Made by a program: the position numbers and the translations under genes. From assembly GCF_964355755.1 (NCBI RefSeq), contig NC_092672.1, positions 12,524,001-12,588,000 on the forward strand: a stretch of 64,000 nt of DNA, written 5' to 3'. The notes under the pieces were generated by a model. It saw only the letters and a list, made by a program, of their open reading frames with translations. It made no database searches and was not told where the DNA came from. The number at the start of each line of letters is the position of its first letter. The first letter of the stretch is position 1. Positions 4,694 through 52,400 of the stretch are shown here, one piece after another. The stretch is from Antedon mediterranea. Its lineage: Eukaryota > Animalia > Echinodermata.

Positions 4694-4880
4694 ATACCTT
4701 ATCTACGGAGTTCACAAGATGTGGATATGTTTTACATATTTCTTCAATTTCTTCCAAATATCCATATCCTACAGTTCTTAGCAATACGTTTCTGGAAATA
4801 AAGAAGATAAAAATGAATCATGGCAAGAATACTCGGTCGATGATGTTAATATGTTTGCTTGTCATGTTTCTAAACAATAA

Positions 4881-6168
4881 TCTATATATAAATTTACGTA
4901 AGGGCAAAATTCGGTAAATCGCGCTTTACTTCTAGAATTTTTACTCGATGGAATATAAAGTTGGTTCGTACTTTCGGTACTGATTTTAACCACCTGATGT
5001 AACCCTGTTTACTAATTAAATGGAGTTAGATAATTAGTTATTGACGATTAAAACGAATTTAGGTTCAACGATTTGCCCCGAATAGGGGTGTTTTCTGATC
5101 GTGGTATACACTGTCTAATGGATGTCCAACTTGAAAAATACCCGCACACAATAATACGAGGACGCTTCGCATTTTCCTATCTCCTTCTACGATAATTGTC
5201 TTTAATAGCTGAAAACCGGTTGAACTGCTCGAGTATAGCATCATAATGTTGAAGACAGGCCGATTTTCTTTAAAAAATACTATTTTGATAGATTTAATTT
5301 ACGTTTTTACAAATGTATTTATTTGCGATGAATGGAACATTCCAATCTCTCAGTCTGCCAGTTTGGTTTAACACAAGTAGGTAAATTTATGAGCCCTTGG
5401 AGAATAAACTTGCAATACTTTGACAATACAGTACTGCAAATACCTATGAACCATTTTTGGTCGTCATTTGAATCGAACATTACTGTGAATACTGTTAGAT
5501 GTAAAAAAATATATAGAAACATTTCTTACTGTGAATACTGTTAGATGTAAAAAATATATACAAATAAACTGTATTACTGTGATTATGGGTAGGCTCTACT
5601 GTTAGATATATAAACACGTAATATACAAATAAACTTTATTACTGACAGTTGCTTCTCAACGTTTGCATTAATTAATAATTACAAAAAATATTACATGTAC
5701 TTTACTATTTCAATTAGACAGTGACAGTTTTAACAACGTATTAAATCGCAAATGTTTTACTATATTTAGTCACCGTTAGTGGTATATTATTTATAGGCCT
5801 ATAAAAAAGGAAAACAATATTTCGTTACTAACGTGGATAAAAAATTGTTCCTCTTTGTACCTATCCTCTTTCCCATCCCTCAACCCTAATTGGGTTTCTT
5901 TAAATGAATAAACAATTTGGACTCATTTTGTGGTAAGTTTCTCTTTCGGAAGTAATTCCCAGGGTGCTAATTTTGGTTGACTACATAAATCATTTTGCCT
6001 ACTTATTTGTTTCTGTAAACGACAATGTATTATAGTCCTGCGGTACGTGCATTTGAAATCGCCAGATGTTTTACCCTGAAATTACTGTGTATTCGAGAAC
6101 CATCTGTGGGCACGACAGTAAATTGTATTTACTAGATGGTACGCTCGCTTCGCTCGCGTACCATCTAG
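4881..6168 (+). mobile_element. Non-autonomous Helitron, family A copy 1
   Basis: 5' a|TCtatatataaatttacg, 3' hairpin and CTAG|t, no TSD. Empty A|T site at ~49465. Confidence 0.85.
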
Positions 6169-7103
6169 TAAATACAATTTTCTTTGAACTATTTAACATA
6201 TTATACGTTTGTTGGGTATAAAATATAAAGCTTACTTTGCCATTTAAAAAATGCAGTCCCCCTCAGTTTGAAGATATAACTTATTCATCCATTGAAAGAA
6301 GTGCACTCTGTAGTTGCCAATCATTCAGTGGTTGCTGAAAAATGAAACATAAACTTTAAGCATAATGTATTTTTATTATTTTATTTTCTGTTCATTTTTC
6401 AATATTTCAATATTTTGCAATACTTGAAGTTCTTCTTCTAATATTTCATATTAAATTGAAAACTGAAGAGTAAACAAAAATGAAATACATTTGTATATTT
6501 TAGGCCTAATTGTCTTAGAAGAAATTACAAGAATTGAAATTTATTCGAGTAGGGCAACCATAAACGGCTTTGTTCTAATATTATATCATTTACAATTTTA
6601 GTATTTTTGTCAAAGCATTGTACCAATCATTTAATAAAAACATGTTAGGATTTATATACATTTTTCAAGTTTGTATTTTAACATAAATTATATAATTCTC
6701 GGTTGGAGCTAATACCAAAGGTAAGAAACATATCATCTCTTCTCGCCTTAAGTGAAGTAAGACACTGCCTTGGTCCTGCCAGACCCCAAAATAAAAGTTC
6801 GACTATAAACCCAATTACATTGTAATTAATTACAAATGACCTAAAGATCTATACATATACACTGCTTTGGTTCTTCCGACAACCACACTCCAACAGATAG
6901 ACATCCCCTACAAATTGCTGATAGAATGATCTAGCACATTGTAAGGAATATAAAATAAGCTATTACAAACTATCTACTTTGCATAGTACTGCCTTAGTTC
7001 TATCATCCCCATGTGAATATAGGGTACAATATCTCATCTGAGCTATCTTTTGGTACCAGAATATAAATACCAATATTCCCGCAAGAAATAAAAACAAATT
7101 TAA

Positions 7104-19900: not shown

Positions 19901-20319
19901 ATAAATCTTGTACCATTGATTCATTAATGTACGTACTACTGTCAGTGAGGCTGAGCTGTAATTAATTACTCATACATGTTGTACCATTGATTCATTCATG
20001 TACGTACTGCTGTCAGTAAGGCTGAGCTGTAATTAATTACTCATACATCTTGTACCATTGATTCATTAATGTACGTACTGCTGTCAGTAAGGCCGAGCTG
20101 TAATTAATTACTCATACATCTTGTACCATTGATTCATTAATGTACGTACTACTGTCAGTAAGGCTGCGCTGTAATTAATTACTCATACATCTTGTACTAT
20201 TGATTCATTAATGTACGTACTGCTGTCAGTAAGGCTGAGCTGTAATTAATTACTCATACATCTTGTACCATTGATTCATTAATGTACCTACTGTCAGTAA
20301 GGCTGAGCTGTAATTAATT
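13939..20319. repeat. Tandem satellite, 71-bp unit, about 90 copies
   Basis: Unit ttaattactcatacatcttgtaccattgattcattaatgtacgtactgctgtcagtaaggctgagctgtaa. Period measured 13941->14012. Head-to-tail, no unique spacers. Confidence 0.97.
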
Positions 20320-24208: not shown

Positions 24209-24894
24209 TTTTGTATATACATTATTAGTTAGGCCTTTACGCATTCTTAAAAATTTCTTTTCCGCTGACATACTATATACGAATTTTAAATACCATACCG
24301 ATACTACCCCGTATGCCTGTATCTCATCAAACTTGGCTACAATTATTGAATGAATACTACTAAGTTTAATATTAAAGAGAATAGTGTTTATTAATAATTT
24401 CCACCTATAAAGGACAGTATTTATCTGAATCTCGCCAAACTTACCACAATTATCAATGATCTAAGAGTACTTTTAAATGGAAGGACCAAAGTGCTATTAA
24501 CTATGTAGTGCAATTATAGAGAAAAAAACTTTCTTTAGTAGGATATTTTTTTTTATGTAAGAATAATACTGTAATAGTTATTGAATAATATTTTCTTGGC
24601 TTTTATAAAAGTTTTTTTTTTTTGCATTTGGTGGAAATTTAAATCAATTAATATAACTGGCTTCATTAATATCTATCTACATTATTAAAATTTATGTGTC
24701 AACAAATGTGATGTACCCATATATGGACATGATGATGCGATATCACTACCATATCTTGGCTTATTACACTTTTTTTGTCAAAAAATACTTTGATAGTGTA
24801 GACAGAGCTTTATATTGTTTACATTTAAATATTGGAACCCAAACAGGTGATTGATTTACCGACATTGAGTTTGGTAATATACTCGGCATCAATG

Positions 24895-25424
24895 CTAAGC
24901 CTTATATTCTAACTTTTCAGCAGCAACAGTCATGTTATTCTCCTTTAAAAATGCAATAAATGATTGCAAGTTATCCTCCCTTAGAATCCCCCTTTGTTCA
25001 AGATCTAATATCACAGTCCATTGGTTGTTACTTTGTTTTTTTAGAACACTTTTCAAACGGATGAGATCTCTTGTATTTTCTTTCGAAAGTGCGTCACCGA
25101 ACTGAATTAGTTGTTGTCGATATGTTGAGAAGGATGTGATACCCTGGTTGGTTTTATCAAATGTCTCCTTTAACAGTTTGTTGACCTCCAGAACACCATT
25201 GGTACCAGTGACATTAATTGCGTCAACAAGAACTTTAACGTTTGTACTGGTTAGATAGCCAGATCGTTTCAATAGGTTGAAGAAACGTATGCAGTCAGCA
25301 TCTTGCAAATCATTGTAAGGTGTTATCAGATCTTTGCATAACACCTTCAGTTTATCAATTGAGCCATGTTCATCAAACCAGCTCGATATGTTTACCACGA
25401 TTTTTTCAAACTCTTCGGATGATC
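24895..25424 (-). CDS. Terminal exon encoding two tandem death-effector-like domains
   Basis: Two ~85-aa helical repeats (LKVLCKD...FFNLLKRSGYLTSTNVKVL and FSTYRQQLIQFGDALSKEN...VILDLEQRGILREDNLQSF) resemble the tandem DEDs of caspase-8/c-FLIP prodomains. Confidence 0.72.
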
Positions 25425-28400
25425 CTGTAAAAAAGAAAACCGAAAACAATTACATTCAGATTTTCAAGTTAGAAATTGTAATAATCATATTGCGCAATAT
25501 GATGAATACTATCAATTGAATACACGCATTATTTGGTACACAGTGTATATCGTTGAACACCATGGACATAAACACATTCAATTCACTAGTATCATTCCTA
25601 TTGTGGTGCGTTGGTATATTAGTTACCTGGATAAATTGGTGATGGCTCCACACTACTTCTGCCTGGAAATGAAATGATAATAAATGATGTTATATTTTAA
25701 TTTTAATTCTTCAAAAGCTGTGTAGATATACTTATTATCATTACATAGATATTCACGTACATTTGTCACTGAAATATATCATTGTTATTTATTTGTAGGT
25801 TAAATATATATATAAGTAATATAGTTAGTTGTCATAAAATACATATTTATTTTGTCATTAAACACAATATTGATGAATGTGTAATCCCACCTTCCAAAAA
25901 TAAACGCTTTAAGCGATCAGTTTTCATCGACTTCTCACCACATGGAACAGTGCTGTTGTCTTCTTTTAAACACTCTTCCAGATCGTGTAAATGAATGTGC
26001 TCTGGATAACAGGCGATACACAACACACGTAGGTTGTAACCGATTCCTTCATTAGTTTTCAGCACAGCCTTTAGTTGAAGCTGTAAATAGCTTAGTATCT
26101 AAAACAAAAAATACATAATCAATAAGTTTGAATGAAACGTTTCTTATAACTGCATTCAGATAAGCTATTACATTACAATATTAGAATCTTTACCTCAATG
26201 CATAAGCTCGGTTTTAGTTCAAATATTTCCTCTGTATTATTTTCGTCAACTTTAGTTCGACGGGATATTTCAAGCTGTTAAAAAAGATGTATTGATTTGT
26301 TGAATTATTTAACATATTCTATCTCACACTGCTTACGTCTACGTATATTCATTACTGTACATTTATTTGGTGAATATAATGTATCATTTAATTTTTAGAA
26401 TTTTTCAGAGAATTACAAATACCCGTTGGGCAACCTAGATACCAAAACATTAAAAACTGTAACACAAAATAGCCTCTATATTAATTTTAGTTATATTATT
26501 ATAAAATTATTTGTTGTTTTATTGTCTAAGTTACTTTTATTCTAAGAATCTTAAATGAATACATATTATTAGAATACATAAATTATGTTGTAATCACAGC
26601 TTGTATTATTATCCATCTGTGTAGTCATGATCAGACGTACTTAGCTCTCACTACTGCTAAAACTGATTGAATGTTTAGGAGACCAAATTTCTACATGCAG
26701 AAAATGATCGGAAATAATTGATAATTTGATATTTGTTTAAAATCTTTCTAAAGACATGCTAGCTAATCAACAGAAATAATAAATATTCAAATTATTGTAA
26801 ATAATGAGTTAAATAAATGTTCGTACCTTCAACGCATGCTTGTTTTCATTTTGATGGTCGATTTTCACGGGACCTAAACGAACCTCATGATCTCCAAAGT
26901 CAAAATCACTACGATTTTGAAATACAACTGGGTCCCGTCCTCTACCTTTAAGCTCCACCAGGTTTAGAAATGCAACAACTAATGTATTGTACACAGAATC
27001 AGGAAGGAAGTCCGTAGGTGTAAGATAAAGTGATACCTTCTGTTTCTTGTCCATTTCAACTTTAAGGCTTTCATCCTTAATTTTCATCCGACATGGAACC
27101 AGGAACATCCGGTTATCTTCGCTTTCATGCTAATGTAAAATAAGTATTTGTAGTGTTATGAACAATATAATATATAACATCGAACTATATTACTAAAATT
27201 ATCTCAGATTTAGTTAAGAGCAAATTTGTTCAACTTACTTCTAATTTCTCATAGAGCAAACCAAATGTTTTCATCACTTCAGTAAAAATATCAAAACGAT
27301 TTGGATCTTCTTCTAATTCTCTTTTCCATAAATGCCGTAGCAATTTTTCCTCAAGGATCCCTTCCTTGTTAAGCTTTTTCCAAAGATTTCTTAATTGTTT
27401 CTGTTTCCAAATAATAAATACAAAAACTAATTTGTAAACGTATTCATACAACCACAATACATGTTGACAACAAACAACTAACTAAAAGTAATCATGTATC
27501 CACATGTCAATATTTTAAATCCGTTTTGTGACAATTATTTTGCTGCTAACCTTATCTACTTACCACTTCAATAGTTGGTTCAACTACTGTGATCACTTTT
27601 GTCACCATTTCAATCATCATGTAAAGATTTGTTATCACTGTGTTTCTTAATTTCTTGTTAGTACTTGAATACATGATAACTCCAATGTCATTCAGGTACG
27701 CTATGGCAGTGAATAGCCCATCTTTTGAAATTCCACATTCAGTGCCGATTTTAGATGTCTAATGCAAATTAATAACAAAATAGAATTTATTGAATTTGGT
27801 GAATAAATATTGATATTTTCCTTTAAAATAATTGTAAACAGCTTATTGTTGAATAAAACATAATTTTATCTAACATTCTTCCTTTTGACTAGACATTTTA
27901 GAAATCGCATTGTCAAGAAGGCCTATTTCTGGTTAAATGTAACTGTTTCCTTGCATTTTTTATATTTAATTTACATTATCTTTGTTCAGTTTTTTTAGAA
28001 TGATAACTAGCTTTTATTAACATTACGAAATAAACAATTCAATGTTTGATTTCATTAATAATTTTAATTGCTCATGTTTTGCAGGAACAACTGAAACAAA
28101 AAAAATAGTACAATAATGAAGACTTCCAAATACTAAAAAATGACAAGACATCTATATTTACTTTTGTAATATTAATTCACATCACTGGCTCAACAAAGAA
28201 ATTGGCAACATTACATTGTAGACAGAAATGTGACCTTCAAATTATGACGTTATAAATTATAATTGTTACCGTATAGTACACTATTTTTAATAAGATAATA
28301 AATTATTTTGTACTAGCGTTCATCTCTATATGTGTTTTATAAATCTGTGTTTACAGTTGTGACAACATAAAATAAACGGTTATACATTAAAAACAAAAGC

Positions 28401-31400
28401 TTACCTCAGTAAAAGTAATACACAGTGTTGTTTTTCCAATTTTTTGCAACTGTTCTTGCAAATCCACCCATTTTAATGGAACACTTCTCACCATGGCCTT
28501 CATATAACGACCAACGTTTCTCCTAAGTTGTTTTATACCTTCATGCGATTTTACAGTGTTATCCACCATGTACATCTCACGATCTACATGGTCGGCATAT
28601 GGCATTCCTTCCATTTTTTCAAACATTTTACGAAACTTATCCTCCACTTCCTTTAATAAAAAGAGTTTTCATAATTACAAGCTATAACAACAACAAGAAT
28701 GTAATTATTCTTACAAACTGTTATTTCATATTCTGATTTGAATAAATCTAACAGATAATTAAACTTAATACACGATTTAATTCGTAGGCTACGCTATTTA
28801 AATTTCATCACTGTATCGGTTTTAAATAATTCAGCATTAATCCCGTCCGTGTATACCACATACTGTACCGTTGCAAAATTGTAAGCTTATTTAATGTTAA
28901 TGTACGTCTGTTACCTTGATCCAATTTTTAGATTTTGACTTTTTAATAAATGTGTCCATATGTGTAGCAACCAAACAGATAGGAGGTGACTCGATGATCT
29001 TGCCATCAATATTAATGGGACTTCCTGGACCATGTTGTGCCACAGTATGTTCATAAATGGACCTTATCCAGAACATATTCATTTCCAAATTGGTCATTCC
29101 TAGTGTCCTCTAAAATCACAAATAAAATGCAATCTTATAAAGTAAGCTAAAATATTCTCAATAACAAAGATATGCATATTTAATAAAGTGTATTCGAGCA
29201 AATAAGTAGGTACTGTAGGCACTTACTGTAATTGAATCTCGTGGATTAGCTGGTTCATCCAAGTTATCACACGAATTAAACGCTACACAGTAGGATACTC
29301 GATTTGTGAGGAAAAACTAAACAAAATACAATTAATAATAATAACTTTTTTTATACTCCAGGTCATTCATTAGGGATGTGTTAATTGATACATGTAATAA
29401 TAGATTAGTGAAAATGTTATACCACAACACAATGTCGTACTGTCACTATGAGCAAATCTCTTTATTTTTTAATAATCATTTAACATATGAAACAAAAACT
29501 ATGAACAAAAGAAAAAATACATAAATCAAATAAAATTTAAAATATAATTTAAAGGTCTGTTTAATAAAATAGATACGTAAACAAGCAAATCAAGGCCCTT
29601 TTTTTAAACATGCACCAATAAATTTATTTTTAAATTTTTAAGACATTTTTAAGTAATAGCAAACAACAAAATAGGAACATACCCTATGCGTTATGTAGTA
29701 GTCCAGTTGACCTGCGTAGTCCCATATAGTAGTTACGTCACTTGGAATACTTTCTGAATCATCACTTTTTACAAATAATTTCCTAATCCTTTTCATCGAC
29801 CAACTATCTTTCTGTCTTCGCTTTTTTATTTTAGCAACAACTTTTCTTTGAATGGATTCGGGAATTGTCAGATTTTCTTTTAGTTGACTCTCTAAATTCA
29901 AATAATGACTACAAATCAATGGGGTGTGTGTACATTAGATAGGGATATGGATAGATGGACTGGTCTGATAATGTTGTGAGTAGACATAATGAATGTTAAA
30001 ATGGATAAAAAAAGTTTATACAATAAATAAATACATCAGTCAGGATGATTAAAGAATTGAACGAGCAGCGAATAAATACATTTATTTGTTTGCAACAAGA
30101 AAAGAAATCTCACTCTTCCCTGGTTGGACAAACTTTTTGAGAACAAAATTTTCCAGAATGTTTCATAACAATGGTATAATGCCATACATATTATTTTATC
30201 AAATATAAAGAAAACCAAATAATGAGTCCAACCCTTTCTTGCCGATTCCACTGCCAATGACGTGTAATCAGACTCTCTGGAATCAAATGTAGAAGCCTCG
30301 CCTAAAGAAAAATCGTTGAAAGAAAGAAATATTCTCTGGGTTTGCTTGAATCTGGAGTTTTCTGTCGGCGAAAATGTATAACTAAAAATGATTATTTGTG
30401 TCATGTTGCACTCATAACGAATACAATGTTATATTATTATATACTAGAGCAGTGAAAATCATGTATAGACCTGTATAAACTCCACAGTTTAACAAGTACT
30501 ACTTTATATTAATAATAATGAAACAATAATATAAACAACACTCCTATGAAGTTATAGTGTGCTAATTTTGTGTTTCTTTCAGTATCAGCATGTATAATAC
30601 ACTACATTAATTTATTATTTACATTAAATTGGTTTATTTACTTTTCTTAAGAAAATAAATTATATTTTAGATATTGTCATGCAATTAATTTGTTGTTTAT
30701 TAATTCGTGCGATGACTTGTTAGGCCTATTAGTAAAGTGATTGTATGCGAAACGACCACACTTTATTTATGCAAAATGATCGTCAAAAATATTTTAAAAA
30801 ATAATCAAACCTTCCACTGAAGACACAGAGTCAGAAGATATAGAACATTCCAAATCAGATATTGAAGGTGCTGCACCTTGTAAATGGAATTTGGTTTCAG
30901 TTGACGTTTGTTTTTCCATATTTGCTGTGATGTGTTCAGGCGTTTTCGGGGATGTTCCTGCAATTCATTATAATATATTTTTGATACAATATAATAGACT
31001 GTATAACATTTCACTTTTATGTATGTTTCAATACTCTATGAGTGCATCTTAACTTGATTATTATCACCAATACAGTTTGTTTAGAATAATAAAAATACCC
31101 TTGTAATAGATATTATAGTAGATATTCATCATACCTATTTTTACTGGATCCAAAGAAGAGATTGCTGATGATTCCAGTTGGGAATCAGATTTAGATGTTG
31201 ACATATCTGAACTTCCTTCACCATCATCCATTTCTTCCTTTATTAACTGTGTTGCAAGTTTTTCTGCAAGTGCATCTTCCCGTATTTTCTTGTTGAGCTC
31301 CATAACTGTTTAAAAAAAAAAGGTGAAATAAGATTGTACGATAAACATCATAGAGATAAATTAAAATACTAAAATTAGAGAAATGAGATACATCATCAAA

Positions 31401-34400
31401 TCATCATCATCACCTGTAAAATACAATAAATATGTAGGTAATTTATGTAATTATAGACCAAAATGCATTTTTAAGTATTGAATAAAAATATTATTTCCAG
31501 TGTACCTTACCGGTACGTTTTTACCTTTATTATGATACTAATTAATCTCTATACACAAATTGGCCAAAGCAGGCAATTATGCGTTTGTTGAAGGAAGAAG
31601 AAAGAGAGAGTTTCTCTCTTTTGTGGGGACAGCTCACTTTGAACGAACAGTTAATGTGTTATTTGGTATGGTTGAATTCTTCTTTTCAAACTTACCGTCG
31701 ATATCTTCCTTCTTCCACTTGTCACACTCTTTTCCAATTGCTTGAAACAATGTCGTTGTGATAGCAATACCATCAGTAGATGGTTCGTTGGATTTAAATC
31801 TATAATAATGAATAATGAACTCAAAAAGGTCGGATTTAATGAAAGGAGAATGTATCCAATAGTTCATCTTAAAATATTAATATATTTAAAATAAAAACGA
31901 AGTGAAGATCACAAGTAAATAAGCATATGCTTCACACTTCTTGGGGATATTTAAAACAAACTGAAACTTTCAGCAGCAGAATTTGCATAAACATCACCGT
32001 TAATGTCACCATCATCGTCATTATCATCATAATTGCCATTATAATCATCATCATTATTATTATTCGAAAAGGAATGAAAACCTGTTACTCAAAGACGAAA
32101 CTTCAGGTATCAACTATTTAAAATAAGAACCTCACTAATACCAATTTTTGTATTTTATTGAATAATTACATATCAAAATACTCAGCACCAAACTTATTAT
32201 AAACAAGAAATCCAAACAACTCGTTAAATGTTGTCAATTGCATTAGAGATACTTATGAAAAAAGATAAAGTGTTTTAAATGGTTCAAAGAACAAAAGATT
32301 GATTTTAATATATTTTTTGATAAGGAATGTTTGCCATGACTATTATAGAGAACATGAATACAGGATTAGAAATAAATGAGAACTTAATCTACTGTAATGG
32401 TAAAAACACCATTCAAATTGTATTATAAATACTTTATATTGATGAAGATCATGTATTTTTTTATTGGTGCATCTTATAAAATAACTTTGTTTTTGTGTTA
32501 CCTTTGTCCAAGCATGGCCTTTACACAGCTAGTTTTTCCAGCACCTTCTTTCCCGAGAAACATACATCTTGAATTTACAACTGCAATCTCACCATTTTCA
32601 AGTTCATTTTGAAATGATCTAATTGCGCTCTTACCTCTAGCTAATATTTCAACTGGAACTAAATTGCGATTAAAATAAATGTAAAATATACAAAAACAAA
32701 TGTACAAATACAAATATTTTACATTTAAGAATCAATTCAAAGCCATAGTTTTAAAACTGTCATTATGAGAGCTCATCTTCTTCACATTCATACAGTTCAA
32801 AGGTTCAGTACAATATTCATTGTGTGTCATTAGTAATACACTGTACTTTAATATTCATGATGCAAAACTCAATCAAAGTGTATTAATGAATACAAACTTA
32901 CTGTCAAGTAACTTCAATATCGTATTTTTCTTTTCTTTGGAGATATCACTATTATCCTTCAAAGCAGATGCTGGTGTTTGTCCTCGCTATACAAAAAATT
33001 GTATTAAAGTATTATCCACTGTTACTTTATTAATCTATATATACATTTACGTAAGGGAAAAAATCGGTAAATCGCCTCTTACTTCTAGAATTTTTATTTG
33101 ATGGTATATATAGTTGGTTCGTACTTTCGGTACTGATTTTAACCACCTTATGTAACTCTGTTTACTAATTAAATTGAGTTAGATAATTATTTATTGACGA
33201 TTAAAGCGAATTTACGATTTGCTCCCAATAGAGGTGTTTTTCATAAATTGTTTTACATTATATAAACACATATACAAATAAACTTTATTATTGACAGTTG
33301 CTTCTCAACGTTTTTATTAATTAATAATGTAATTACAAAAAAATATAAACGTCGTAGTGATGTATCGTTACATGTACTGTACTGTACTTCAATCGACTAT
33401 GACGGTGACAGTTTCAACAAAGTATTAAATCGCAATGTTTTAATGTATTTAGTGATATATTATTTGTAAAACATGAAAACAATTAATATTTCGTTACTAA
33501 ATGGATAAAGAATATATTAACAAATTGTTCCTCTTTGCACTCATCCTCTTTTCCATCCCTCAACCCTAATGTTACATACAAAACACAAATTAAGTTTGTT
33601 TAAATTTGACTCAAACAATTGGTCTCATTTTGTGACAAGTTTCTCTTTCGGAAGTAATTCACAGGGTGCTAATTTTAGTTGAGTACATAAATCACCGTTT
33701 TTATTTATTCGTTATTGTAAATAAATGACATTGTCCTGTGGTACGTACATTTGAAATCGCCAGTTTTTAGTCGCGTGGACGCGACTCAATAGTTCACTAT
33801 GTCGGTCGGTCGGTCTGTCTGTCGGTCCGGTATCACTATGCGTTTTATCGCTTTTCTGTACTTTTTGAACTGTTTTGATGTTTTTTCTGAGAGCATGCGA
33901 CTTATGGCTGTTGGCCTTGTTTAACGCTGAAATTACTATGTATTCGAGAAGCATCTGTGGACGACCTAGATGCGAGAGAAGCGAGTAAACTAGTAATTTA
34001 CATAATCCGGATTGTAATAAACACATGCATAAGTTTAAAATAGTGTGCACACGTTAATATGACACAATCTGAGTACCTTTGGACTAACAAACAAAATAGT
34101 AACTGCTCTACCATTTAATGTTTATTGTGATTGAATACACTTTAAAAATCTCTCAAAAGCCACATTTTGAATTTTTAATTTTCTAAATTGTTCTGTCTAT
34201 GTAAAGCGCATTAATGCTTTCAGCATAATGCGCAATATCAAGCACCAGTTATTATTATTATTATTAAAAATGCTATTAAAAAAAATATTATAAAAGAATA
34301 GTCGATACTGTATTAAATGTACATGTTAATTATCGCATCTATGAGAATTTACCACCACTAGCAGTAACCCGTGCTCCGCGTGGTCTTTGTCTGCTTTAAT

Positions 34401-37400
34401 ATATGATTATATACTAATTCGCATGGGATGAGTAAGTATCATATAAGCGCACTCTTCCCTCATAAAAAGCCATGGATGTTGTTATACACCAAGTATTCCT
34501 TCACTTTTAAGTAACCATGAGCTACAAAATGAAAGCAATACTGGATATGGGACTTTACGAAAATGGAAAAATGGTGCTGTGTGAATACCATGATGCGCGC
34601 AATAACATAACGAAAGTATGTTAATGAAGTATTGGAATAAATCAACACAAAAAGTAGTCGAAATTTGACGATGCGCTCGGACACAAACTATTACTTTTTG
34701 GGTGTATTTTTTCTTTGAGACGTCAAATTACTGCTATTGTTTGCTTTTTTTAGTGTTTATCCTTAAAATTCAGCAAAGTGACATAGCCTATCGTGTGCGG
34801 CCCATCAATAAACATCAGTGTGCCAAATGTGAGCACGTACCGTTCGGTGGCTTTGGAAGAGATACATAAAATTAAAAAAATTTAGTAGCATTAATATTTA
34901 GATGCTAACATAATGTCTTTAAACAATTGGCGCCCTTTCTGATATTCTTTGGCTCCATCAAGATGATGATTATTGTGTATTAGTTAACAAAAGATTTGTA
35001 ATATTAGTTAAGTTAATAACATACTCCTAATCAAAATAAGAGTATACCTTGGATATAGGCGTACAGTAGTGGTTTGCTTAATAAGCAAAATTTAAAAATG
35101 CAAATGCAATGTTGCTGCATTAATTTACGGTACCTTGTTTCTTGCTTTAAGTGATGCTCCGTGGGCTATGAGACTGTTCACTATTTCTAAATTACCACCA
35201 AACCTAACGTGTCCATGTAGCGGTGTGTTTCCCTCCTGGAGAGCAGAAAGTTTTATGTATTATAATATACATTTTACACTTTAGATACTAGAACTAAGGT
35301 TTAAACAAATTTAATATTGTATTCGTTCTGCTCCTACAATTATAACAAGCAATTAACTACTACATCTAATTATTGTATATTTTGCTTCTCGTGGGCTACT
35401 CGTCTTTCAGTAGGTAACTTCGATGATCATCCCTGCCAAATCGCCAGGACTTGTCTGGCGGGTGTAGGCGATTATACAAGTACAATTATTTAAACTCTGG
35501 AGGCAACTGGAAATGCGTCTGGCAGGTGGACAGCCGGGAATGACAGCCGGGGTGTGAAGCATATGTTTATCGATTATAGATTGAAAGTTCGATGATAAAT
35601 CAGAATTAGGGTAAAAAATTGACTTCAGTAATGTAAACGGGGTCCCATCGTTTTATTACTTTTTATGAAATCATACACATAAGCGACATTATTGGTTCGG
35701 CATCATAGTCCGCAAGGTCTATGGTCAAAAAATTGTTAAGTAAATAGAGTATTTTGTTATTTATCTACGATAGACAACAGTATAACAGTACTGTAAATAA
35801 TACAACTAGTTGATTTTAATTGGGACGTGGAGAGGTGTTAGCAATGAACATAATTTTGAAAGTATTGGTATTAACGTGACAGCTATATGATGCTTAAAAT
35901 ACTTTAAACTTATATTTACTTTGATAAATAAATATGACTTTTCACAATTAAAATAAATTAAACAACTCCAAGGTTTGTTTATACGGGAGCTTATTTAGAT
36001 TAACTTATATTGCTGACTAATACGAATAATAACGTAAATGATTTTTTAAATTATTTTAAAAGAGTAATTTACATTGTTTGTTATATAGATACAGACGGGT
36101 AAGCACTGAACACATTTTAAAGTATTAATTTAGCGTCTTGTTCAATCTAAAACGCTACAGCTACACGATTTTTAATATATTTTAAATTATACTTAATTTG
36201 CTTTGATAATAACTATAGGCTACACTTGTTCACAATGAAAAGCACATTAAACGAATCTATGGGATTTGCTTATAATGGGACATAATTTAAATTAACTTTG
36301 TAAAAAAGAGTTTTTTTGTGTAAAAGAGTAATTTACATTGTCTGTTGCTGTGACTGATGCTCCGTGAGCTATGATACTGTTCAATATCTCTACATTACCA
36401 TCGGCAAACGTAACGTGTTTATGTAGCGGTGTGCTTCCAAGCTGATGGAAAGAAGAAAATTAGATTATTAAACTTGAGGCATTTTTTAAGAATATATGTA
36501 TTATTATATTATAATATTTATCCTTTTCTACATTCATTTTCTAATTAATTAAGAGTGAATGTAAATTATATAGAAAAACCTATTAAGAAAATAATAAAAC
36601 TTGTTGATTTTAATTATTATTATAAATACAGAAGGGTTAGCACTGAACACATTTTAAAAGTATTGATTTAGCGTCTTGTTCAATCTAAAACCCTACAGCT
36701 ACACGATTTTCAATACATTTTAAATTGTATTTTTGCTTTGATAATATAAACTATACATTTTTTCCAAGAAAAACACATTAAACGAATCTAGAGTTTACTT
36801 ATAACAGGAGACAATTTAAATTCACTTGTAGTGTTAACTAATACGAATAATTACGTTATTGATTTTTAAATCATTGTAAAAGAGTAATTTACATTGTTTG
36901 TTGCTGAGATTGATGCTCCATGAGCTATAAAACTGTTCACTATCTCTACATTACCACGGCCACACTCAACGTGTCCATGTAGCGGTGTGTTTCCTCTCTG
37001 GAAAGAAGAAAGTTAGATTAAACTTGACGCATTTTGTTAAGAATACAGGTATTTATTACATATTTATCCTTTTCTACATTCATTTTCTAATTCATTTTCT
37101 AAGTCCTTTCGCCGACTGCAAAAGAACACAGCGCCATAAGTACTCATTTTTCTAAATTAAAATTATGTGTACTTAATGCTCGATCCACGCAACGCAAAGC
37201 CTCAAGAAAAGGAGTGGAGCAAGTATCTGGAAATGGTGAGACGAGTACTAAATCCACAGAAAAGCATAGGTCTATAGAAAAAGCACATCTTAATTTTGGC
37301 ATTCTAAATGCACGTTCACTGCGTAACAAGTGTGATGAATTTGTGGACTTAGTTGTTAGCTATAATCTAGATGTAGTGGCGGTGTCTGAAACCTGGTTAA

Positions 37401-40400: not shown

Positions 40401-43400
40401 TATCTCAAAAACTATTTCTGCGTCGTCTTTTCACTTGCGAAACATTCGAAGGATTCGTAAGTTTATAAATGAGACAGCAGCTAAACAACTTGTTCATGCT
40501 TTTGTCACTTCACGACTAGATATGGGAAACTCTTTGCTATACGGGCTACCACAAAAACAACTCCACAGGCTCCAACTGATTCAAAATACAGCGGCACGAG
40601 TTGTTAAAAAATTACCAAGATATGGACACATATCAAACACTTTGGAAATATTGCATTGGCTCCCTGTTAGGTACCGCATTGTTTTTAAAATATTACTTTT
40701 TGTTTTTAAGTCTATAAATGGCATGGCTCCTGAATATATTTCTGACATGCTTAGGCTGTATGTTCCCGGACGTAATCTGCGCTCTAGTGACTCGCTGCTT
40801 CTACATCAGCCTAAGTCTCACCACTCATGGGGTGACAGAGCATTCTCCGTTACTGCTCCTCGTCTGTGGAATGCTCTACCGAGCTCTATAAGATTTTGCA
40901 AAACTGTTGATACTTTTAAAAAATTATTAAAAACACATTTATTCATTAAGGCATATGGAAATCATGAGGTTTCTTAAAGTTGTTTAGACTTAGAATTGTT
41001 TTGTATACCTTTTCCTGGCCAGCATTATCTTTGGGGTGCCTCTGTCTTGGTTGTTGTCTCTGAGCACCCGGTCGTCTGTGGCAAGGCAAATGTGTATCCT
41101 GCTCCTTTGTTTGGTCACCTAGGTAGGGGTCCGGGACCGCGACAGAATAACAACGGATGGGGACCCTCCAAAGAAATTGCATTTTATTTGCCAGGAATTT
41201 GTATGATTTATTTCTTTTTTATTTTTAAATGCGCCTTGAGCACTCTGGAGTGGTATGTGCGCTATAAAAATCTTATTATTATTATTATTCCCCCCCTCCT
41301 AAAACGCTAATCGTCGTTAGACATTGCGCGTCTCACTTGTGTTCGCCACTCAGTACGTTTTTGAGCTAGCATGTGTATAGGTCCGCGTGTGAAAAGTTCT
41401 GTTTCCTTTTTTATGTTTGCCATCCATGTTGTTTTTCTATACATACAACATTAATTATTAAAATAAAGACGGGCTATGCAATGAACAGAGTTATTAATTT
41501 AGCGTCTTGTTCAATCTAAAATGCTACAGCTACACGATGTTTAATATATTTTAAATTGTATTTTTGCTTTGATAATAGGCCTAACTATACATTTTTCAAA
41601 TGAAATACACATTATACGAACCTAGGGTTTGTTTATAACGGGAGACAATTTAAATTAACTTGCAGTGTTAACTAATACGAGTAATTACGTTATTGATTTT
41701 TAAATCATTGTAAATGAGTAATTTACATTGTTTGTTGCTGTAACTGATGCTCGGTGAGCTATGAGACTGTTCACTATCTCTACCTCACCATAGCCAAAAT
41801 AAACGTGTTGATGTAGCGGTGTGTTTCCATCCTGGAAAGAAGAAAGTTAGATTAAACTTGACGCATTTTTTTTCAAGAATACAGGTATTATTATTATTAT
41901 TACATATTTTTCTTTTCTATATTCATTTTCTAATTCATTGAGAGTGACTGTAAATTATATAGAAATACTTGGTATTAAGAAATAATACAACTTGCTGATT
42001 TTAACTATTATAATACAGATGGGTTAGCAATGAACATATTTTAAAAGTATTAATTTAGCGTCTTGTTCGATCTAAAACGCTACAGGTATACGATTTTTAG
42101 TATATTTTCAATTGTATTTTTGCTTTGATAATAACTATACATTTTTTCCAATGAAAAACATATTAAACGAATCTAGTGGTTACTTATGCAGTAGTAGAAA
42201 AGTATTAATTTCGGTTCTTGTTAAATCCAAAATGCTACAGCTACACGATTTTCAATATAATTGTATTTTTGCTTTGATAATAACTATACATTTTCCAATG
42301 AAAAACACATTAAACGAATCTAAGGTTTGCTTATAACGGGAGATAATGTCAATTAACTTGTAGTGTTAACTAATACAAATAATTAATGCTTTTTAAATCA
42401 TTGTAAAAGAGTAATTTACATTGTTTGTTGCTTTGATTGATGCTCCGTGAGCAATGAGACTGTTCACTATCTCTACAATACCATCGCCAAGCGTAACGTG
42501 TTTATGTAGCGGTGTGTTTCCCTCCTGGAAAGAAGAAAGTTAGATTAAACTTGACGCATTTTTTTTAAGAATAAATGTATTATTATATTAAATATTTTTC
42601 TTTTCTATATTCATTTTCTAATTCATTAAGAGTGACTGTAAATTATATAGAAAGACCTGGTATTAAGAAAATAATACAACTTGCTGATTTTAATTATTAT
42701 AATACAGAGGGGTTAGCACTGAACACATTTTAAAAGTATTAATTTAGCGTCTTGTTTGATCTAAAACGCTACAGCTATACGATTTTCAATATACTTTAAA
42801 TTGTATTTTTGCTTTGATAATAACTAAACATTTTTCAAATGAAAAACACATTAAACAAATCTAGGATTTGCTTATAACGGGAGATAATACAAATTAATTT
42901 GTAGTGTTAACTAATACAGTACAAATAATTACGTTAATGATTTTTAAACAACATTGTATAAGAGTAATTTACATTGTTTGTTGCTGTGATTGATGCTCCG
43001 TGAGCTATAAGACTGTTCACTATCTCTACATTACCATCGCCAAGCGTAACATGTCTATGTAGCGGTGTGTTTCCATCCTGGAAAGAAGAAAGTTAGATTA
43101 AACTTGACGCTTGCCAACGTCGCATAATCCATCTGTTTTTACGATCCATTGTTGGGTTTACGCTTCCGAAAACTTACTTCAAGTCAAGTGCATCTACAGT
43201 AACAGTTATTATATTACCATAATGCCGTCTCTGTTATTAATCTTTCTCTTTTATTTTCCAGTTATCATGTATATGCATGTTAAACATTTTATTTGTTGCT
43301 TGTATGTATTCTAAAAGATACTAATAAATAGATAATATAGATGAACTATTTTAGATATTATTTGTTCAATTTATGATCCATTGGGATTCGCAGCTCCCGT

Positions 43401-46400: not shown

Positions 46401-49400
46401 ACATGTGGCGTATATTAGAAATAAAATCTCCCTAGCTAGTGCAGTTAGCTGAGACGATACTAGCGTATAATCCATAGGTCTTATTGCGATTTCTACATGT
46501 TATGTCATAGGCTACTATTGAGAAGTTATATTATACAGATATTGACTGTTTAGAGGTTAAATATAAGATTTGACATCCCCGAGGGAATGATATTAAGTTC
46601 GAGGGAATATATATTTCCCGAGAACTTAATATCATTCCCGAGGGGATGTCAAATCTTATATTTAACCGATATAAAAGGCAATATCTGTTATATTATATAG
46701 CCAAGAACAAGTCTGCTGGGTTGGGTGAAGCTAGGCTAGGCCTCCTATGTATTTGTATTGTATTTAAACAAGCCTGCCTAGACACCTTACCTTGCGAAGA
46801 ATAATATACAGATAATTACTAATTAATGATTCCTTGGCAATAAAATATTCACTTAGGCCTAGGTCGTTTAAATTAACAGGAGAATTTCCATCAATAAGCC
46901 TATTAATAATAATATTAAATCAGGTAGGCCGAATAAACAATTTGTCTTCTTCTGTTCGAGGAGCCGAATCAACGGATGTTCAGCGCGTACTAGTTACTAG
47001 GTTACTACCGTGAGTATTGACCAATCACAAACTGTGTTTCATCACATTTAGGGTGGACTAAAAACAAATGAGGGCGCTATGTATGCATAGCTTAAATAGT
47101 TTAGAAGATTAATTTCTTCAAGCAACTTCCGTGGCGCAGCGGTTGAAGCGTTGTCTTGCGATGGAGTGGCAATTCCACCCGAGTTCAAGATCGAGTAGAT
47201 GACTTTTGTTTATTTATCGGCAAACGCGAGTGTTGCCACATGAAAATTACACAGTCAATATCATCGAACTCGAGAATGTTTATGTTTAATGACAGGGGAC
47301 ACGATAATTACGCAAAAATTACACAGTCAATATCATCGTTCTCGAGGATACATATATACGATTTACGATCCTCGCAGCGGTAGTCATGTGATGCAGTTTC
47401 AACCAATCACGTTCGCGTATTTACATAGGCTATGTAATCTATATATAAATTTACGTAAGGGCAAAATTCGGTAAATCGCGCTTTACTTCTAGAATTTTTA
47501 CTCGATGGTATATAAAGTTGGTTCGTACTTTCGGTACTGATTTTAACCACCTGATGTACCCTGTTTACTACTTAAATTAAGTTAGATAATTAGTTATTGA
47601 CGATTAAAACGAATTTAGGTTCAACGATTTGCTCCAAATAGGGGTGTTTTCCGATCGTGGTATACACTGTCTAATGGATGTCCATCTTGAAAAATACCCG
47701 CCACTAAAATGCGAGGATGCTTCGCATTTTCCTATCTCCTCCTACGATAATTGTTTTTAATAGCTGAAAACCGGTTGAACAGCATCATAATGTTGAAGAC
47801 AGGCCGATTTTCTTTAAAAAAATACTATTTTGATAGATTTAATATACGATTATACAAATGTATTGATTTGCGATGAATGGAACATCCCAATCTCTCAGTC
47901 TGCCAGAGTTTGGTTTAACACAAGTAGGTAAATTTATGAGCCCTTGGTTTAACACATACGGTAGGTAAATATATGGGCCCTTTGAGAATAAACTTGCAAT
48001 ACTTTGACAATACTGTAAATACCAACTATTTTTGGTCCTCATTTGAATCGAACATTTCTTACTGTGAATGTTCGTATACTGTTAGATGTAATTATAAAAA
48101 TATATACAAATAAACTTTATTACTGAGATTGTGGATAGGCTCTACTGTTAGATATAAACACATTATTATATACAAATAAACTTTATACTGACAGTTCGTT
48201 CTCAACGTTTATATTAATTAATAATTACCAAAAATATAAACGTCGTAGTGGTGTACCATGACATGTACTTTAATATTTCAATCGATTATGACAGTGACAG
48301 TTTTAACAAAGTATTACGGTAAATCGCAAATGTTTTACTGTATTTAGAGTATACTATTTATAGGCCTATAAAACATTGAAAAAATAGTTCGTTACTGAGT
48401 GGATAAAGAATATATTTAAAAATTGTTCCTCTGTGTACTTATCCGCTTTCCCATCCCTCAACCCTAATGTTACATACAAAACACAAATTGGGTTTCTTTA
48501 AATGAGTCCAAATAAAAAATCTGGACTCATTTTGTGATAAGTTTCTCCTTCGGAAGTAATTCCCAGGGTGCTAATTTTAGTTGACTACATAAAACATCGT
48601 GTCTATTTATTCGTTTCTGTAAACGACAATGTATTATAGTCCTGCGGTATTTGAAATCGCCAGTTTTGTTACGCTGAAATTACTGTGTATTCGAGAACCA
48701 TCTGTGGGCACGACCTATAGTATAATAAATTATCTCTATTGTGGCTTGATTACACGCCTTCCGTTTTTTTTTCTTTTACGGGTTATCTCAACTCAAATAA
48801 GTGTAGTGAGGCCGCAGTTATAGTCTATTAGTAGAGTAGATTGTGTCTGTTATTGTTTATTAATAAATGTTTTCATACCCATTAATCAACAGTTTAAAAA
48901 AGGGTTCTTGTTTTTCACCCACTTAATTTCACCGTAAACGTTTTATATCATATTTCTTTTAGTATAAAACACTTTGCAAAGATTTAGTAACTTTTTGCAG
49001 GGTGTATTATTTCATAAATAAGTCATATTCACTTGACAAGCTAGTATAACTTATAGAAAAGATCATATTCAACGCAATTAGAAGTACGGTATCTCTGAAG
49101 ACCTTTTTGAAGCTCCGGTTAATCCTTATGAGAAAGCTCATACCGAACGTTGTATGCATATTAATCCGCTGAGTCAGTTTACTGTATGTCTATTAATCCG
49201 CTGGATTCAGTGTTCAGTGTGAATAATATCCTTTTAAAAATATATGGATTGTATAATTATATATATATAGTTTCTATACCTTATCTACGGAGTTCACAAG
49301 ATGTGGATATGTTTTACATATTTCTTCAATTTCTTCCAAGCCTGTATAGCTTGATACAGCTCTTAGTAATACTTTTCTGAGAAAAAAAAAGAATATAAAA

Positions 49401-52400
49401 ATGCATCATGGCAAGAATATTCGGTCGATAATGTTAATATGTTTATTGTTCATGTTTCTAAATAATAATAAATACACTTTTCGTTGAACTATTTATAATA
49501 TTAAAAGTTTGTTGGATATAAAATGTAAAGCTTTCTTCTCCATAAAAAAAAATGCAGTCCTCCACAGTTTGAAGAAATAACTTACTCATCCATTGAAAAA
49601 ATGCACTCTGTAGTTGCCAATCATTCAGTGGCTGCTGAAAAATGAAACTCAACATTTAAGCATATATTAATAAATAAAATTAATTTACCTGTTAATTACG
49701 TAAAATTGTTGTTTTTTGTTTGTTTTATTTAAACACAAATTATTTTAATTCTCTGTTGGAGCTAAACAGTATAATTATATTAAGTCTTAAAAATCTTAAA
49801 AAACATTATGGTTTTGAGCTAATTTTTATTGTATTACACTTTATTTGTAGGAATATTTTCTGGGCAATTCCATGGTCACTCGCATTACACATTACAGTCA
49901 TTTTTGTTAGTCTAAGCTTTGTACTTTCTATACTAATTGGATTTTTAAGTCAATGTTTTATATGAACATACTTTAGGTGCAAGTCTTTAATAAAATACTT
50001 TAAAAAAAATTGTATGTCTTTTACTTCGACAATGACGCCATTGCGAAATTCTGTCACACGCATTACACAAAAAGGACACAACAAAAATTTGATTAGATTT
50101 GATAAGAACGTGTCCTTAAACTAAAAATATATGAATCAAAAGATCTTATATTTTTAATTGCTATACTTTTAAAGTATAAAATAGGATAATAAAAAAATTC
50201 AACATTACACAGATTTTAAAAATATTTGACATTTTAACAAAAAAGTCCTGTCACTCGCATTACTGTCACTCGCATTACCGTAAGAAATGAACTTAGTATT
50301 TACTAAACAAAGCAGATTTTAGAACGAAGAAAAGTATACAATAATTAAATAATGCAACATTAAACCACTCAAAGGATTTTATATCAATTTTCAAGTAAAA
50401 ACTTTTATTTCAACTCATTTGGATGAAGTTCTAAAGGACATCATCTATTTTTAACACTAACAGAACATCTTGTTTTTTTATAAACACAGTAACACTTTAA
50501 CGGTCACTAAAAATGAAAATAGAAAATTCAAACAGCCATTTTACAAATTATGGAACTCAAAGTTCTTCGCAAACCAGCATCAAGCCTTCTTTTTGCCCTG
50601 GTAGTGGCTTTAGCAAAAGCTATAGCACTTCTAAAAGGTGATGGCCCGTCTGATGCCAAAGCAGCCTTCTTTGCTCTGAACTTAGCCACACGTTTTCTAT
50701 TAGCAACTTTAAGAGCATCAATCTTCTGCTTCTTCAAAGCTGGTGGCAGAGCTAGAATTTTCTCTTTTCTTTCACTTTTTTACTTCTTTTCGAAATTTCA
50801 TTTTGTTTGTTTCTGTATGAGGTGTATTTTCCCTCGGCTTTCAGTTTTTCTAGGTACTTTCTTTGTCGTTCGGCCATTTCTAAAAGCAGGATGCAAATGT
50901 GAATGATATTTTAAAATTATTTTTAAATAATAATAGTGCTTTAGACCTGGTGGTGTAAAATATGCCTAGTAAATAATAATATATAAATAAATTATTATAG
51001 CCTAGGCCTATGCAGTGTTTTCAAATTATAGAATTTGAAATAATTAACACTAACAATATAAGAAAAAAAAACTTAAAAATTGTGATTAAATAAAAATGTA
51101 TACTTATTCTTATCTTCACAAAAGATTGTACCAAATTTGATAAATTTTTTATTTAATGAGCTCTTATAATGATTGATTTTTCAAATGATTTAACTGCAAA
51201 AAGGTCATTGCTAGGGATTGTGCTGCCCTCAACAAACCTAATGCTATAATTATTATACTGTACTGCCTCCAAATAAGGGCTAAATCACACATTGTATTAT
51301 GAAATTAATGTATATACTAATTCTGGGACTAATTCATAACTAATTATAGATTAATTACTATTTTACTTTACAAAAAAAAGAGTTTTAGTAATGTCACTCG
51401 CATTACATTGTCCATTTTTTAACGTCACTCGCATTACATGTCACTCGCATTTCACTTGTCAATGTCTCAACAATTTTGTATTTACGGGGATTTTTTATTT
51501 TTATTTATCAAATTTTAATTGTTCAAAGTAGTATAGCTAAATTATAAAATTTCATTAAAAAAAAATTATCATCACGATGGTATAAAAAAAAAAAAAATTT
51601 TTGTTGTCACTCGCATTACATACCCTAATATATAACAGAATATATATATATATGGGATATTCAACATTTGTAGTTATATCATATTTTCCATACATCTTAA
51701 GTGTACTATTACTTAGAAATGTTACTTTATAAATATTGCTTTGTTGGGGAAATAATAATCAGTTAACGTAATTACCTATTTTTCACACCTAAAAAAAAAT
51801 ATATATTCAACATTGAATAAACGTAATTTTTTGGCTGCAAAAATTCATAAATGAATTGAAAAAGTTAAAAACCTAGTTCCCACATATTCAAAGAGTAACA
51901 TAAACACAAATTTTGAGCTGACTAATTAATTTGAATTTTTTTGGTCATGTCCATGTTTGCATGGAATTGCCCTTCTTAGTTTTCCTAGCTTCTACAGTAG
52001 GAAGGCTAAGCATATGCTGTTCCACCAAAGTCAAGCGATTTGGAAGGGCCCACGCCACGAGACAGGGGATGATTGGGAGAGAGATACTGCCGGTCGTTGT
52101 CTTTGCGTGCGCAAGGGTGTGTAACTAATAAAACGGCTATTTTATGCTCTAGCAAACACAGGATATTCGTCAAAATAGTTAAATTGCTATTATTTAATAC
52201 ATTTGATCATATCAATAAAAATAAAATAAATTTAACTTAAAATAAATTTAACAATTCAATATTCAATTATCAATTGTCTAAAAAGAAAAAGAATCAATAA
52301 AATTTAATTAAGAAATACACAAGAATAAATATAAACGTACGGCATACAGTATATATTCTTGAGTTTAGATCCATTGTTAGTTTACCATTATTATTATATT

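Follow-up and report, generated by a model that had tools for sequence, protein, structure and literature searches.

A crinoid Roco gene with duplicated ankyrin exons and a predicted tandem DED tail, a candidate NLR-like sensor of Antedon mediterranea

What might be the function of a crinoid gene that joins ankyrin repeats (ANK) to the Roc-COR module of the Roco proteins and ends, without a kinase, in a tandem pair of death-effector domains (DEDs)? This question is raised by an AT-rich, multi-exon eukaryotic gene located on the minus strand of a 64,000-nucleotide (nt) stretch of the Antedon mediterranea genome (RefSeq assembly GCF_964355755.1, contig NC_092672.1, positions 12,524,001 to 12,588,000; hereafter the window, numbered from its first nucleotide). 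From the analysis of this gene and its relatives, we propose that it encodes a Roco-based, NLR-like cytosolic immune sensor, which would operate on a GTPase switch and signal by DED-DED contacts to a crinoid caspase; we give this reading a probability of about 0.55.

The gene encodes an ANK-Roc-COR protein with a predicted tandem DED

The gene runs from 49593 to 24895 on the minus strand, in a coordinate-based splice model of 25 coding exons (3,780 nt, 1,259 amino acids, one terminal stop) whose splice sites, set by coordinate with Antedon mediterranea proteins as guides, are all AG/GT and whose reading frame is intact. The protein comprises, in that order, an N-cap, six ankyrin repeats, a C-cap, Roc, COR, a short linker and the tandem DED, which is followed by the stop. 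The family profile, the phase fit and the conservation in the neighbouring paralogue point to the probable start micro-exon and N-cap exon. The exons, all on the minus strand, are as follows:

49586..49593, minus strand: likely start micro-exon, 8 coding nt, phase 2 donor GTAAGT; suggested by its phase fit to the next exon and by a 200-nt block that is 87% conserved in the neighbouring paralogue
49280..49376, minus strand: probable ankyrin N-cap exon, 97 nt, phase 2 to 0, AG/GT; profile of seven family N-termini, E 3e-7
42973..43077, minus strand: ankyrin exon 1, 105 nt, one repeat, phase 0-0; Pfam Ank E 7e-7
42420..42524, minus strand: ankyrin exon 2, 105 nt
41727..41831, minus strand: ankyrin exon 3, 105 nt
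36893..36997, minus strand: ankyrin exon 4, 105 nt; exon-exon joints in contigs
36337..36441, minus strand: ankyrin exon 5, 105 nt; exon-exon joints in contigs
35134..35235, minus strand: ankyrin exon 6, 102 nt; Pfam Ank E 1.5e-6; a contig splices its 35134 end to the 32986 exon
32902..32986, minus strand: C-capping ankyrin-like exon
32502..32658, minus strand: Roco alpha0 helix and G1 P-loop exon
31696..31799, minus strand: Roc G2 (switch I) exon
30233..31305, minus strand: low-complexity insertion between G2 and G3, three exons (31305-31135, 30957-30811, 30361-30233); spliced contig
28915..29891, minus strand: three Roc exons, 29891-29683 (G3), 29316-29227 and 29109-28915 (G4)
25891..28650, minus strand: putative G5 and COR, six exons (28650-28405, 27758-27564, 27400-27239, 27129-26827, 26274-26194, 26098-25891); Pfam COR-A, and fold match of the paralogue P0002 to LRRK2/LRRK1/CtRoco
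25627..25662, minus strand: linker exon, 36 nt
24895..25424, minus strand: terminal exon with the predicted tandem DED and the stop codon; Pfam, fold model and structure matches

A reading made from the sequence alone (the sequence-only reading) had described an intact frame passing through the Roc motifs and COR to a last exon with two DED-like repeats, and an ANK-Roc-COR-tandem DED architecture without a kinase. Both descriptions are borne out by the 25-exon model and Pfam: the stop directly follows the DED exon, and a downstream kinase exon was rejected, no kinase-like exon being present in the window. The interval proposed for the gene, 24895..35235, covers its 3' part and contains only the last of the six ankyrin exons; it misses the 5' part, since the other five ankyrin exons, the N-cap and the likely start lie up to 14 kb upstream. 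Elsewhere in the window, no exon homologous to about 200 relatives (including proteins with kinase, caspase, TIR, HEPN, Death, ZU5 and NACHT domains) was found by tblastn at E<1e-3. The possibility that the gene is a pseudogene was rejected on account of its 25 exons with intact frame and splice sites.

Public contigs of runs X8 and X9, which we took from their joints to include spliced RNA although none of the runs is registered as RNA (X8 also covers introns), are consistent with the model. In one X8 contig, the donor end of ankyrin exon 6 is followed by the 32986 exon, with 30 of 30 bases matching, and in an X9 contig the exons 31305 and 29891 stand 330 nt apart, versus 1,246 nt in the genome. 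The sequence-only reading would have been contradicted by transcripts continuing into other downstream domains; in fact, an X8 contig of an approximately 90% identical copy extends without splicing past the stop and covers 277 nt of the 3' flank. In other X8 joints, an end resembling that of exon 4 is linked to either exon 5 or exon 6 (sides of 21-23 nt, likeness threshold 84%), and out-of-order ankyrin joints occur in both X8 and X9; none of these exon-4-like or out-of-order joints was found in run X1, which covers introns. As the contigs stem from other individuals, and possibly from paralogues, they support the exon structure and not exon skipping in this allele: alleles or paralogues could give the skip-like and out-of-order joints.

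The ankyrin exons diversify at their predicted binding face

Each ankyrin repeat corresponds to one phase-0 exon of 105 nt (102 nt for the last one). Five of the six in-gene exons share with a stray copy at 60.8 kb blocks of 330-640 nt with 75-88% identity, intron flanks included, and the units are spaced by 553, 693 and 556 nt in an array interrupted by a long interspersed nuclear element (LINE). These repeated blocks indicate that the exons were duplicated together with their intron flanks, and gene conversion among them is likely. The stray copy is as follows:

60701..60805, minus strand: seventh ankyrin exon, intact, 11 kb upstream of the likely start; Pfam Ank E 3e-7; flanks 75-88% like those of the in-gene exons

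This exon is either an orphan copy or part of an upstream paralogue; it was dropped as a candidate first exon of the gene once the N-cap and start exons had been located at 49.3-49.6 kb. At 62237-62405, 1.5 kb beyond it, lies a remnant of the ankyrin-intron repeat unit.

Variation among the ankyrin exons clusters at codons 1, 8, 11, 12 and 14. Codons 1, 8, 11 and 12 correspond to ankyrin consensus positions 3, 10, 13 and 14, while codon 14 lies in a two-residue loop insertion; a published ankyrin library (PMC3308923) randomised positions 3, 10, 13 and 14, among others, as its binding face. The following lines of evidence, the selection tests being made on the six in-gene exons without the 60805 copy (seven-exon versions gave the same picture), suggest that this clustering reflects selection. 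First, omega, the ratio of the non-synonymous to the synonymous substitution rate, is 5.3 at the six library positions 2, 3, 5, 10, 13 and 14 versus 0.73 elsewhere (p 4e-5). Second, it is 4.0 versus 0.89 elsewhere for the classic set of positions of designed ankyrin repeat proteins (DARPins) (p 1e-3). Third, the site model M2a beats M1a (p 1e-4), and a star tree agrees. Fourth, with all seven exons, 15 of the 31 extra residues fall at the 6 of 35 positions that make up the binding face (permutation p 5e-4). Fifth, in the same seven exons the non-synonymous distance at the face (0.32-0.35) exceeds both the synonymous distance (0.14) and the downstream-intron distance (0.11). Overall omega across the exons is about 1.3. 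Together, these data indicate that the ankyrin exons diversify at their predicted binding face, with a signal of positive selection in this small sample.

The predicted switch is a Roc-COR module

The Roc motifs are G1 GKEGAGKT (amino acid 308), G2 PSTDGI (331), G3 WDYAGQ (565), G4 ATHMD (656) and a putative G5 VDN (702), and the same motifs recur across the crinoid Roco family. G2 and G3 are separated by a Ser/Lys/Glu-rich low-complexity insertion of 224 amino acids, which is mostly disordered in the AlphaFold model of the close paralogue P0002 (mean predicted local distance difference test score, pLDDT, of 73; largely under 50 in the insertion). In its exon 30361-30233 (minus strand), the insertion shows an in-frame 45-nt deletion relative to P0002 and to another paralogue, P0004.

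Pfam recognises Roc (E 2e-10) in a region of P0002 that is 97% identical to the window gene, and COR-A in two single exons (E 1e-5 and 5e-4) and in full-length paralogues (E 1e-15). The P0002 model, which stands in here for the window protein (itself modelled for the DED exon only), matches LRRK2, LRRK1 and CtRoco at E 4e-15 (LRRK2) to 5e-14 over 540-600 columns, and a 42-sequence family profile matches the archaeal and bacterial Roco proteins MbRoco2/CtRoco (E 1e-25), including the helix that precedes the P-loop, and then LRRK2. No NACHT or NB-ARC ATPase was detected by Pfam in the close paralogues, the switch being Roc-COR. With a Roc domain bearing G1-G3 and variant G4-G5, and with COR directly after it, the protein is classed from its sequence as a Roco protein, not an NLR, and falls outside the three textbook Roco groups. 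Groups 1 and 2, which have N-terminal leucine-rich repeats (LRRs) and, in group 2, a kinase after COR, do not accommodate its ankyrin N-terminus and its lack of a kinase.

At the end of COR (exon 26098-25891, minus strand), there is a CxxC...H...C cluster, three cysteines of which are nearly invariant in 42 relatives; this cluster is possibly a zinc site.

A predicted tandem DED of the caspase-8 type in the tail

The last exon, which matches eight Antedon mediterranea proteins with 51-93% identity, contains two DED stretches that Pfam detects at E 7e-8 with 33 bits, just below the curated cut-off of 35.9. Its predicted fold has a pLDDT of 85, and all the Foldseek matches listed for this model are tandem DEDs of caspase-8, c-FLIP or viral FLIP. 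A second structure aligner gave, against caspase-8, a Z of 16.7 (root-mean-square deviation 2.7, 164 residues, 17% identity), whereas Z was only 5-7 against Death, CARD and PYD domains. A 12-sequence profile restricted to the DED also finds caspase-8 (E 6e-7), whereas a single-sequence search of the last exon against the PDB returned only myosin light chains (E of about 0.5) and the full-length profile did not detect the DED. The tail is thus predicted from its model to form two packed death-effector folds of the caspase-8 type, and the prospect that it would not adopt a death fold, which the sequence-only reading had named as a ground for abandoning its interpretation, did not materialise.

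The RxDL charge-triad motif is a hallmark of DEDs. No RxDL string occurs in the last exon, where the RLDL of caspase-8 aligns to unrelated DED1 residues; the hydrophobic K-V-L patch is kept in DED1.

The gene is a member of an expanded crinoid Roco family with swappable tails

A search with the COR region gave 44 proteins, including 34 from crinoids (16 Antedon, 18 Anneissia), one from a brittle star and one from a mussel. The tails of the 34 crinoid relatives are tandem DEDs (18 proteins), Death or Death-like domains (4), HEPN domains (2), a membrane tail after two Roc-COR units (1) and low-complexity repeats (1), while 8 models end at COR; no kinase match was found in any of the 34. In a quick tree of 55 cores, from which 14 partial sequences were excluded, the window gene falls in an Antedon-only clade of 16 with a support of 100, and the HEPN and Death tails occur nested in different parts of the tree. 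These comparisons place the gene in a crinoid Roco expansion whose tails (tandem DED, Death, HEPN) appear to be swappable. The paralogues sit in public databases as uncharacterised proteins. A protein-atlas lookup made with P0006 gave ANK-Roc clusters from molluscs, sponges and arthropods, which we record only as a lead.

The window gene is itself a mosaic. Just before amino acid 820 it is closer to P0004 (97/100) than to P0001 (89/100), and after it the order is reversed (54/55, 125/127 and 68/69 to P0001 versus 46/55, 100/127 and 57/69 to P0004), which points to recombination between tandem copies. One such copy begins in the window:

4698..6292, minus strand: 5' end of a tandem paralogue, with its start micro-exon at 6292 and its N-cap exon at 4791-4698, running off the window; family profile and conservation

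The start micro-exon of this copy no longer has a GT donor, and the first intron contains a 1.2-kb repeat, so that this paralogue may be a pseudogene or use another start.

A crinoid network of DED proteins

The search with the DED exon gave 148 clusters at 50% identity, and 104 of the 141 new ones (more than 299 amino acids) were scanned. Among these 104 relatives, 23 have NACHT, 8 Roc or COR, 6 TIR and 2 a caspase domain, and single ones have RIG-I helicase, Rel, kinase, UCH, ubiquitin, ZU5, HEPN, Death, fibrinogen or TPR/NB-ARC domains; only one is a crinoid caspase. Twenty relatives were picked for their architecture, 19 of them from crinoids and one a weakly matching frog caspase-8. The caspase-8-like protein of Anneissia has two DED pairs (four DEDs), with a best identity of 34% to the window DED, and crinoid NLRs carry the same DED type as the window gene. 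That adaptor domains common to sensors and effectors link them is a principle argued in PMC8195603; in the literature searched, a crinoid DED network, including DED-RIG-I and DED-Rel proteins, was not found described.

Outside the window, we also noticed a crinoid RIG-I-like helicase (P0114) and a crinoid Rel protein (P0153), each with an N-terminal tandem DED, a crinoid NLR with five DED pairs (P0056), and a crinoid TAZ-KIX-Roc-COR-DED model (P0189).

Proposed function and competing explanations

In the proposed mechanism, the ankyrin groove would bind a variable foreign or modified-self ligand, and this binding would shift the nucleotide and dimer state of Roc-COR. The shift would free or cluster the tandem DED, which might then recruit the caspase-8-like protein through a crinoid-specific surface, and not the vertebrate FL motif, to cause cell death, while exon duplication, loss and recombination among tandem paralogues would supply new specificities. 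The gene has the features by which it would work like an NLR, namely a repeat sensor, an NTPase switch and a swappable death-fold effector in a lineage-specific expansion. The NLR-like layout of sensor, switch and effector advanced in the sequence-only reading, in which ankyrin binding would control the Roc-COR switch and bring in a DED caspase, gains from the diversifying ankyrin exons, the swapped tails and the crinoid caspase with the same DED type, but the DED2 motif that caspase-8 needs for filaments (F122/L123) is not conserved here.

Several points weigh against our proposal. First, the selection test concerns six 35-codon sequences and was made with our own codon-model code and naive Bayes site calls, the position sets being fixed after the repeats had been inspected. 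Gene conversion can inflate such tests. Moreover, the framework omega is high (0.73-0.89), as in a weakly constrained sequence, and codons 23, 30 and 31, although flagged, do not lie on the face. Second, caspase-8 filaments need F122 and L123 of DED2 for the type I chain contact (PMC7864959), and the position equivalent to F122 is an Arg here (Arg-Leu), Phe occurring in 3 of 209 related units. The crinoid caspase is also devoid of the FL motif (His and Thr), so that a vertebrate-type filament cannot be assumed. Third, this DED caspase comes from Anneissia, not Antedon, and the window DED, 34% identical to that of the caspase, is no closer to it than to the NLR or kinase copies. Fourth, CtRoco is a monomer when it binds GTP and a dimer in the nucleotide-free state (PMC6337361), a behaviour that does not match an NLR-like oligomerisation on activation.

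Among the alternatives, the one that survives best, though we regard it as improbable, keeps the same sensor and changes its output: the tandem DED would recruit DED-Rel, DED-TIR, DED-kinase, DED-deubiquitinase or NLR proteins for a transcriptional or NADase defence, and not for caspase death. It draws on the distribution of this DED type, borne by the Rel protein, six TIR proteins, a kinase, a UCH protein and 23 NACHT proteins for a single crinoid caspase among the 104, and on the missing FL motif. However, caspase recruitment is an established role of DED pairs with this fold, the crinoid caspase has two such pairs, and a sponge Roc-COR-DED is fused to a caspase.

It is still less probable that the gene is a dispensable birth-and-death paralogue, or a non-immune scaffold, in which exon duplication and gene conversion would proceed in a repeat-rich cluster with no selection for new ligands. 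Such a drift would suit the overall and framework omega values (about 1.3 and 0.73-0.89, respectively), the mosaic of two annotated paralogues, the 45-nt in-frame deletion relative to P0002/P0004, the orphan ankyrin exon and the neighbour with its lost donor. It accords poorly with a gene whose 25 exons keep their frame and splice sites and whose G motifs are intact, with the spliced contigs, and with changes that concentrate on the face (permutation p 5e-4) where the non-synonymous distance exceeds the synonymous and intron ones.

Last, we consider it marginally weaker again that the protein is a regulated decoy akin to c-FLIP or viral FLIP, whose catalytically empty tandem DED would cap or block DED assemblies with the GTPase timing the brake, since the K-V-L patch kept in DED1, the DED2 devoid of the filament-extending FL motif and the c-FLIP and vFLIP fold matches that recommend it are offset by the loss of that motif across the clade, caspase and NLRs included (hence no mark of an inhibitor), by the replacement of the tail with HEPN, a domain that acts as an effector in conflict systems, and by a diversifying sensor that suits a trigger better than a brake.

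Beyond the caspase-signalling sensor that we favour for this gene, we suggest, quite tentatively, that crinoids may have evolved a second, GTPase-switched class of intracellular immune receptors. Their ankyrin sensors would be natural DARPin-like libraries, generated by exon duplication, paralogue recombination and possibly exon skipping. One lineage-specific tandem DED with a non-FL interface, having replaced the CARD and Death adaptors, would connect these sensors to caspase, NLR, RIG-I and Rel proteins.

Comparison with known systems

DAPK1, the group 3 Roco protein, has ankyrin repeats. It also resembles the Antedon protein by its Roc-COR, its C-terminal death-fold module and its lack of LRRs (PMC6337361), but it has an N-terminal calmodulin-dependent (CaM) kinase and a single death domain, whereas the Antedon protein has no kinase, a predicted tandem DED, several copies and a fast evolution. 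Orthology to DAPK1 was rejected, as the likely start lies 35 codons before the first ankyrin repeat and the tail scores Z 16.7 with tandem DEDs versus 5-7 with death domains. The tandem DEDs of caspase-8 and c-FLIP (PDB 8ym4 and 4zbw) share with the predicted tail the two-domain fold and its packing (Z 16.7, 17% identity); unlike them, the Antedon DEDs are C-terminal, come without a caspase domain and lack the DED2 FL motif and RxDL (PMC7864959). The invertebrate DED-NACHT-LRR NLRs likewise combine sensor repeats, an NTPase switch and a DED, but they switch by an ATPase of the STAND class (signal transduction ATPases with numerous domains), whereas the Antedon protein would use a Ras-like Roc-COR in a reversed domain order (PMC2575513).

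The closest parallel to the evolution of the array comes from brown algae, whose LRR-ROCO candidate receptors also place Roc-COR behind an array of one repeat per exon, with the same phase, exon duplication and stray repeat exons; their binding face is under positive selection, and the genes are clustered and undergo birth and death (PMC3341825, PMC11378527). Their repeats, however, are LRRs and not ankyrins. The apparent result is an animal convergence on the exon shuffling of brown algae with a different repeat type.

As to the architecture, the AP-GTPase (Roc)-COR counter-invader systems and the Roc-COR-death-fold proteins of sponge and coral similarly combine a repeat sensor, Roc-COR and a variable C-terminal effector (PMC8195603). 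Supplement 4 of that paper lists a sponge chain with APGTPase+COR+DED+TRADDN+caspase and a sponge row DED+TRADDN+Ankyrin+APGTPase+COR+Death; the parts searched of the paper and of this supplement contain no ANK-Roc-COR-DED-DED row, crinoid Roco family or exon-level diversification. In Trichoplax, animal Roc-COR genes number at least 17 and carry CARD, death, TPR or LRR domains, in what is an independent expansion, DED and ankyrin being absent from the text searched (PMC4104024). Published examples of animal Rocos that lack a kinase and carry death-fold or TIR domains come from Trichoplax (PMC4104024), sea anemones (PMC5094078) and Aplysia (PMC9334734). The architecture that the sequence-only reading had singled out as unusual is hence real, but it belongs to one member of a large crinoid family, and kinase-less Roc-COR-death-fold proteins are listed for sponge, coral and placozoan. 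In the literature covered, which was incomplete and left figures outside the search (including Fig. 2 of PMC11378527, with about forty animal architectures), we found no paper on a crinoid Roco family, on ANK-Roc-COR-DED-DED or on ankyrin exon diversification in an animal Roco.

Roc-COR has been proposed as an immune sensor in bacteria and brown algae, with no tested or obvious output in those proposals. With a fast-evolving sensor, an intact Roc-COR and a predicted death-fold output in one animal protein, and a candidate caspase in the same animal class, the substitution of Roc-COR for the NLR ATPase becomes testable in cell culture. Such a protein could also offer a kinase-free read-out of the Roc-COR switch common to LRRK2 and DAPK1.

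Surroundings in the window

The LINE that interrupts the ankyrin array (37103-40977, plus strand) is near-complete but carries frameshifts (endonuclease E 4e-15, reverse transcriptase E 2e-17); it sits, antisense to the gene, in the intron that separates ankyrin exons 3 and 4. Downstream of the gene are decayed LINE reverse-transcriptase fragments (22313-23480, plus strand) and, between the gene and the downstream paralogue, a satellite of 90 copies of a 71-bp unit with 96% matches (13939-20319). Upstream of the gene, a Lys/Arg-rich broken frame occurs at 50900-50523 (minus strand), with a plus-strand frame that has no Pfam match. Lastly, contig depth marks 24700-24812 and approximately 33000-34900 as genomic repeats of very high copy number.

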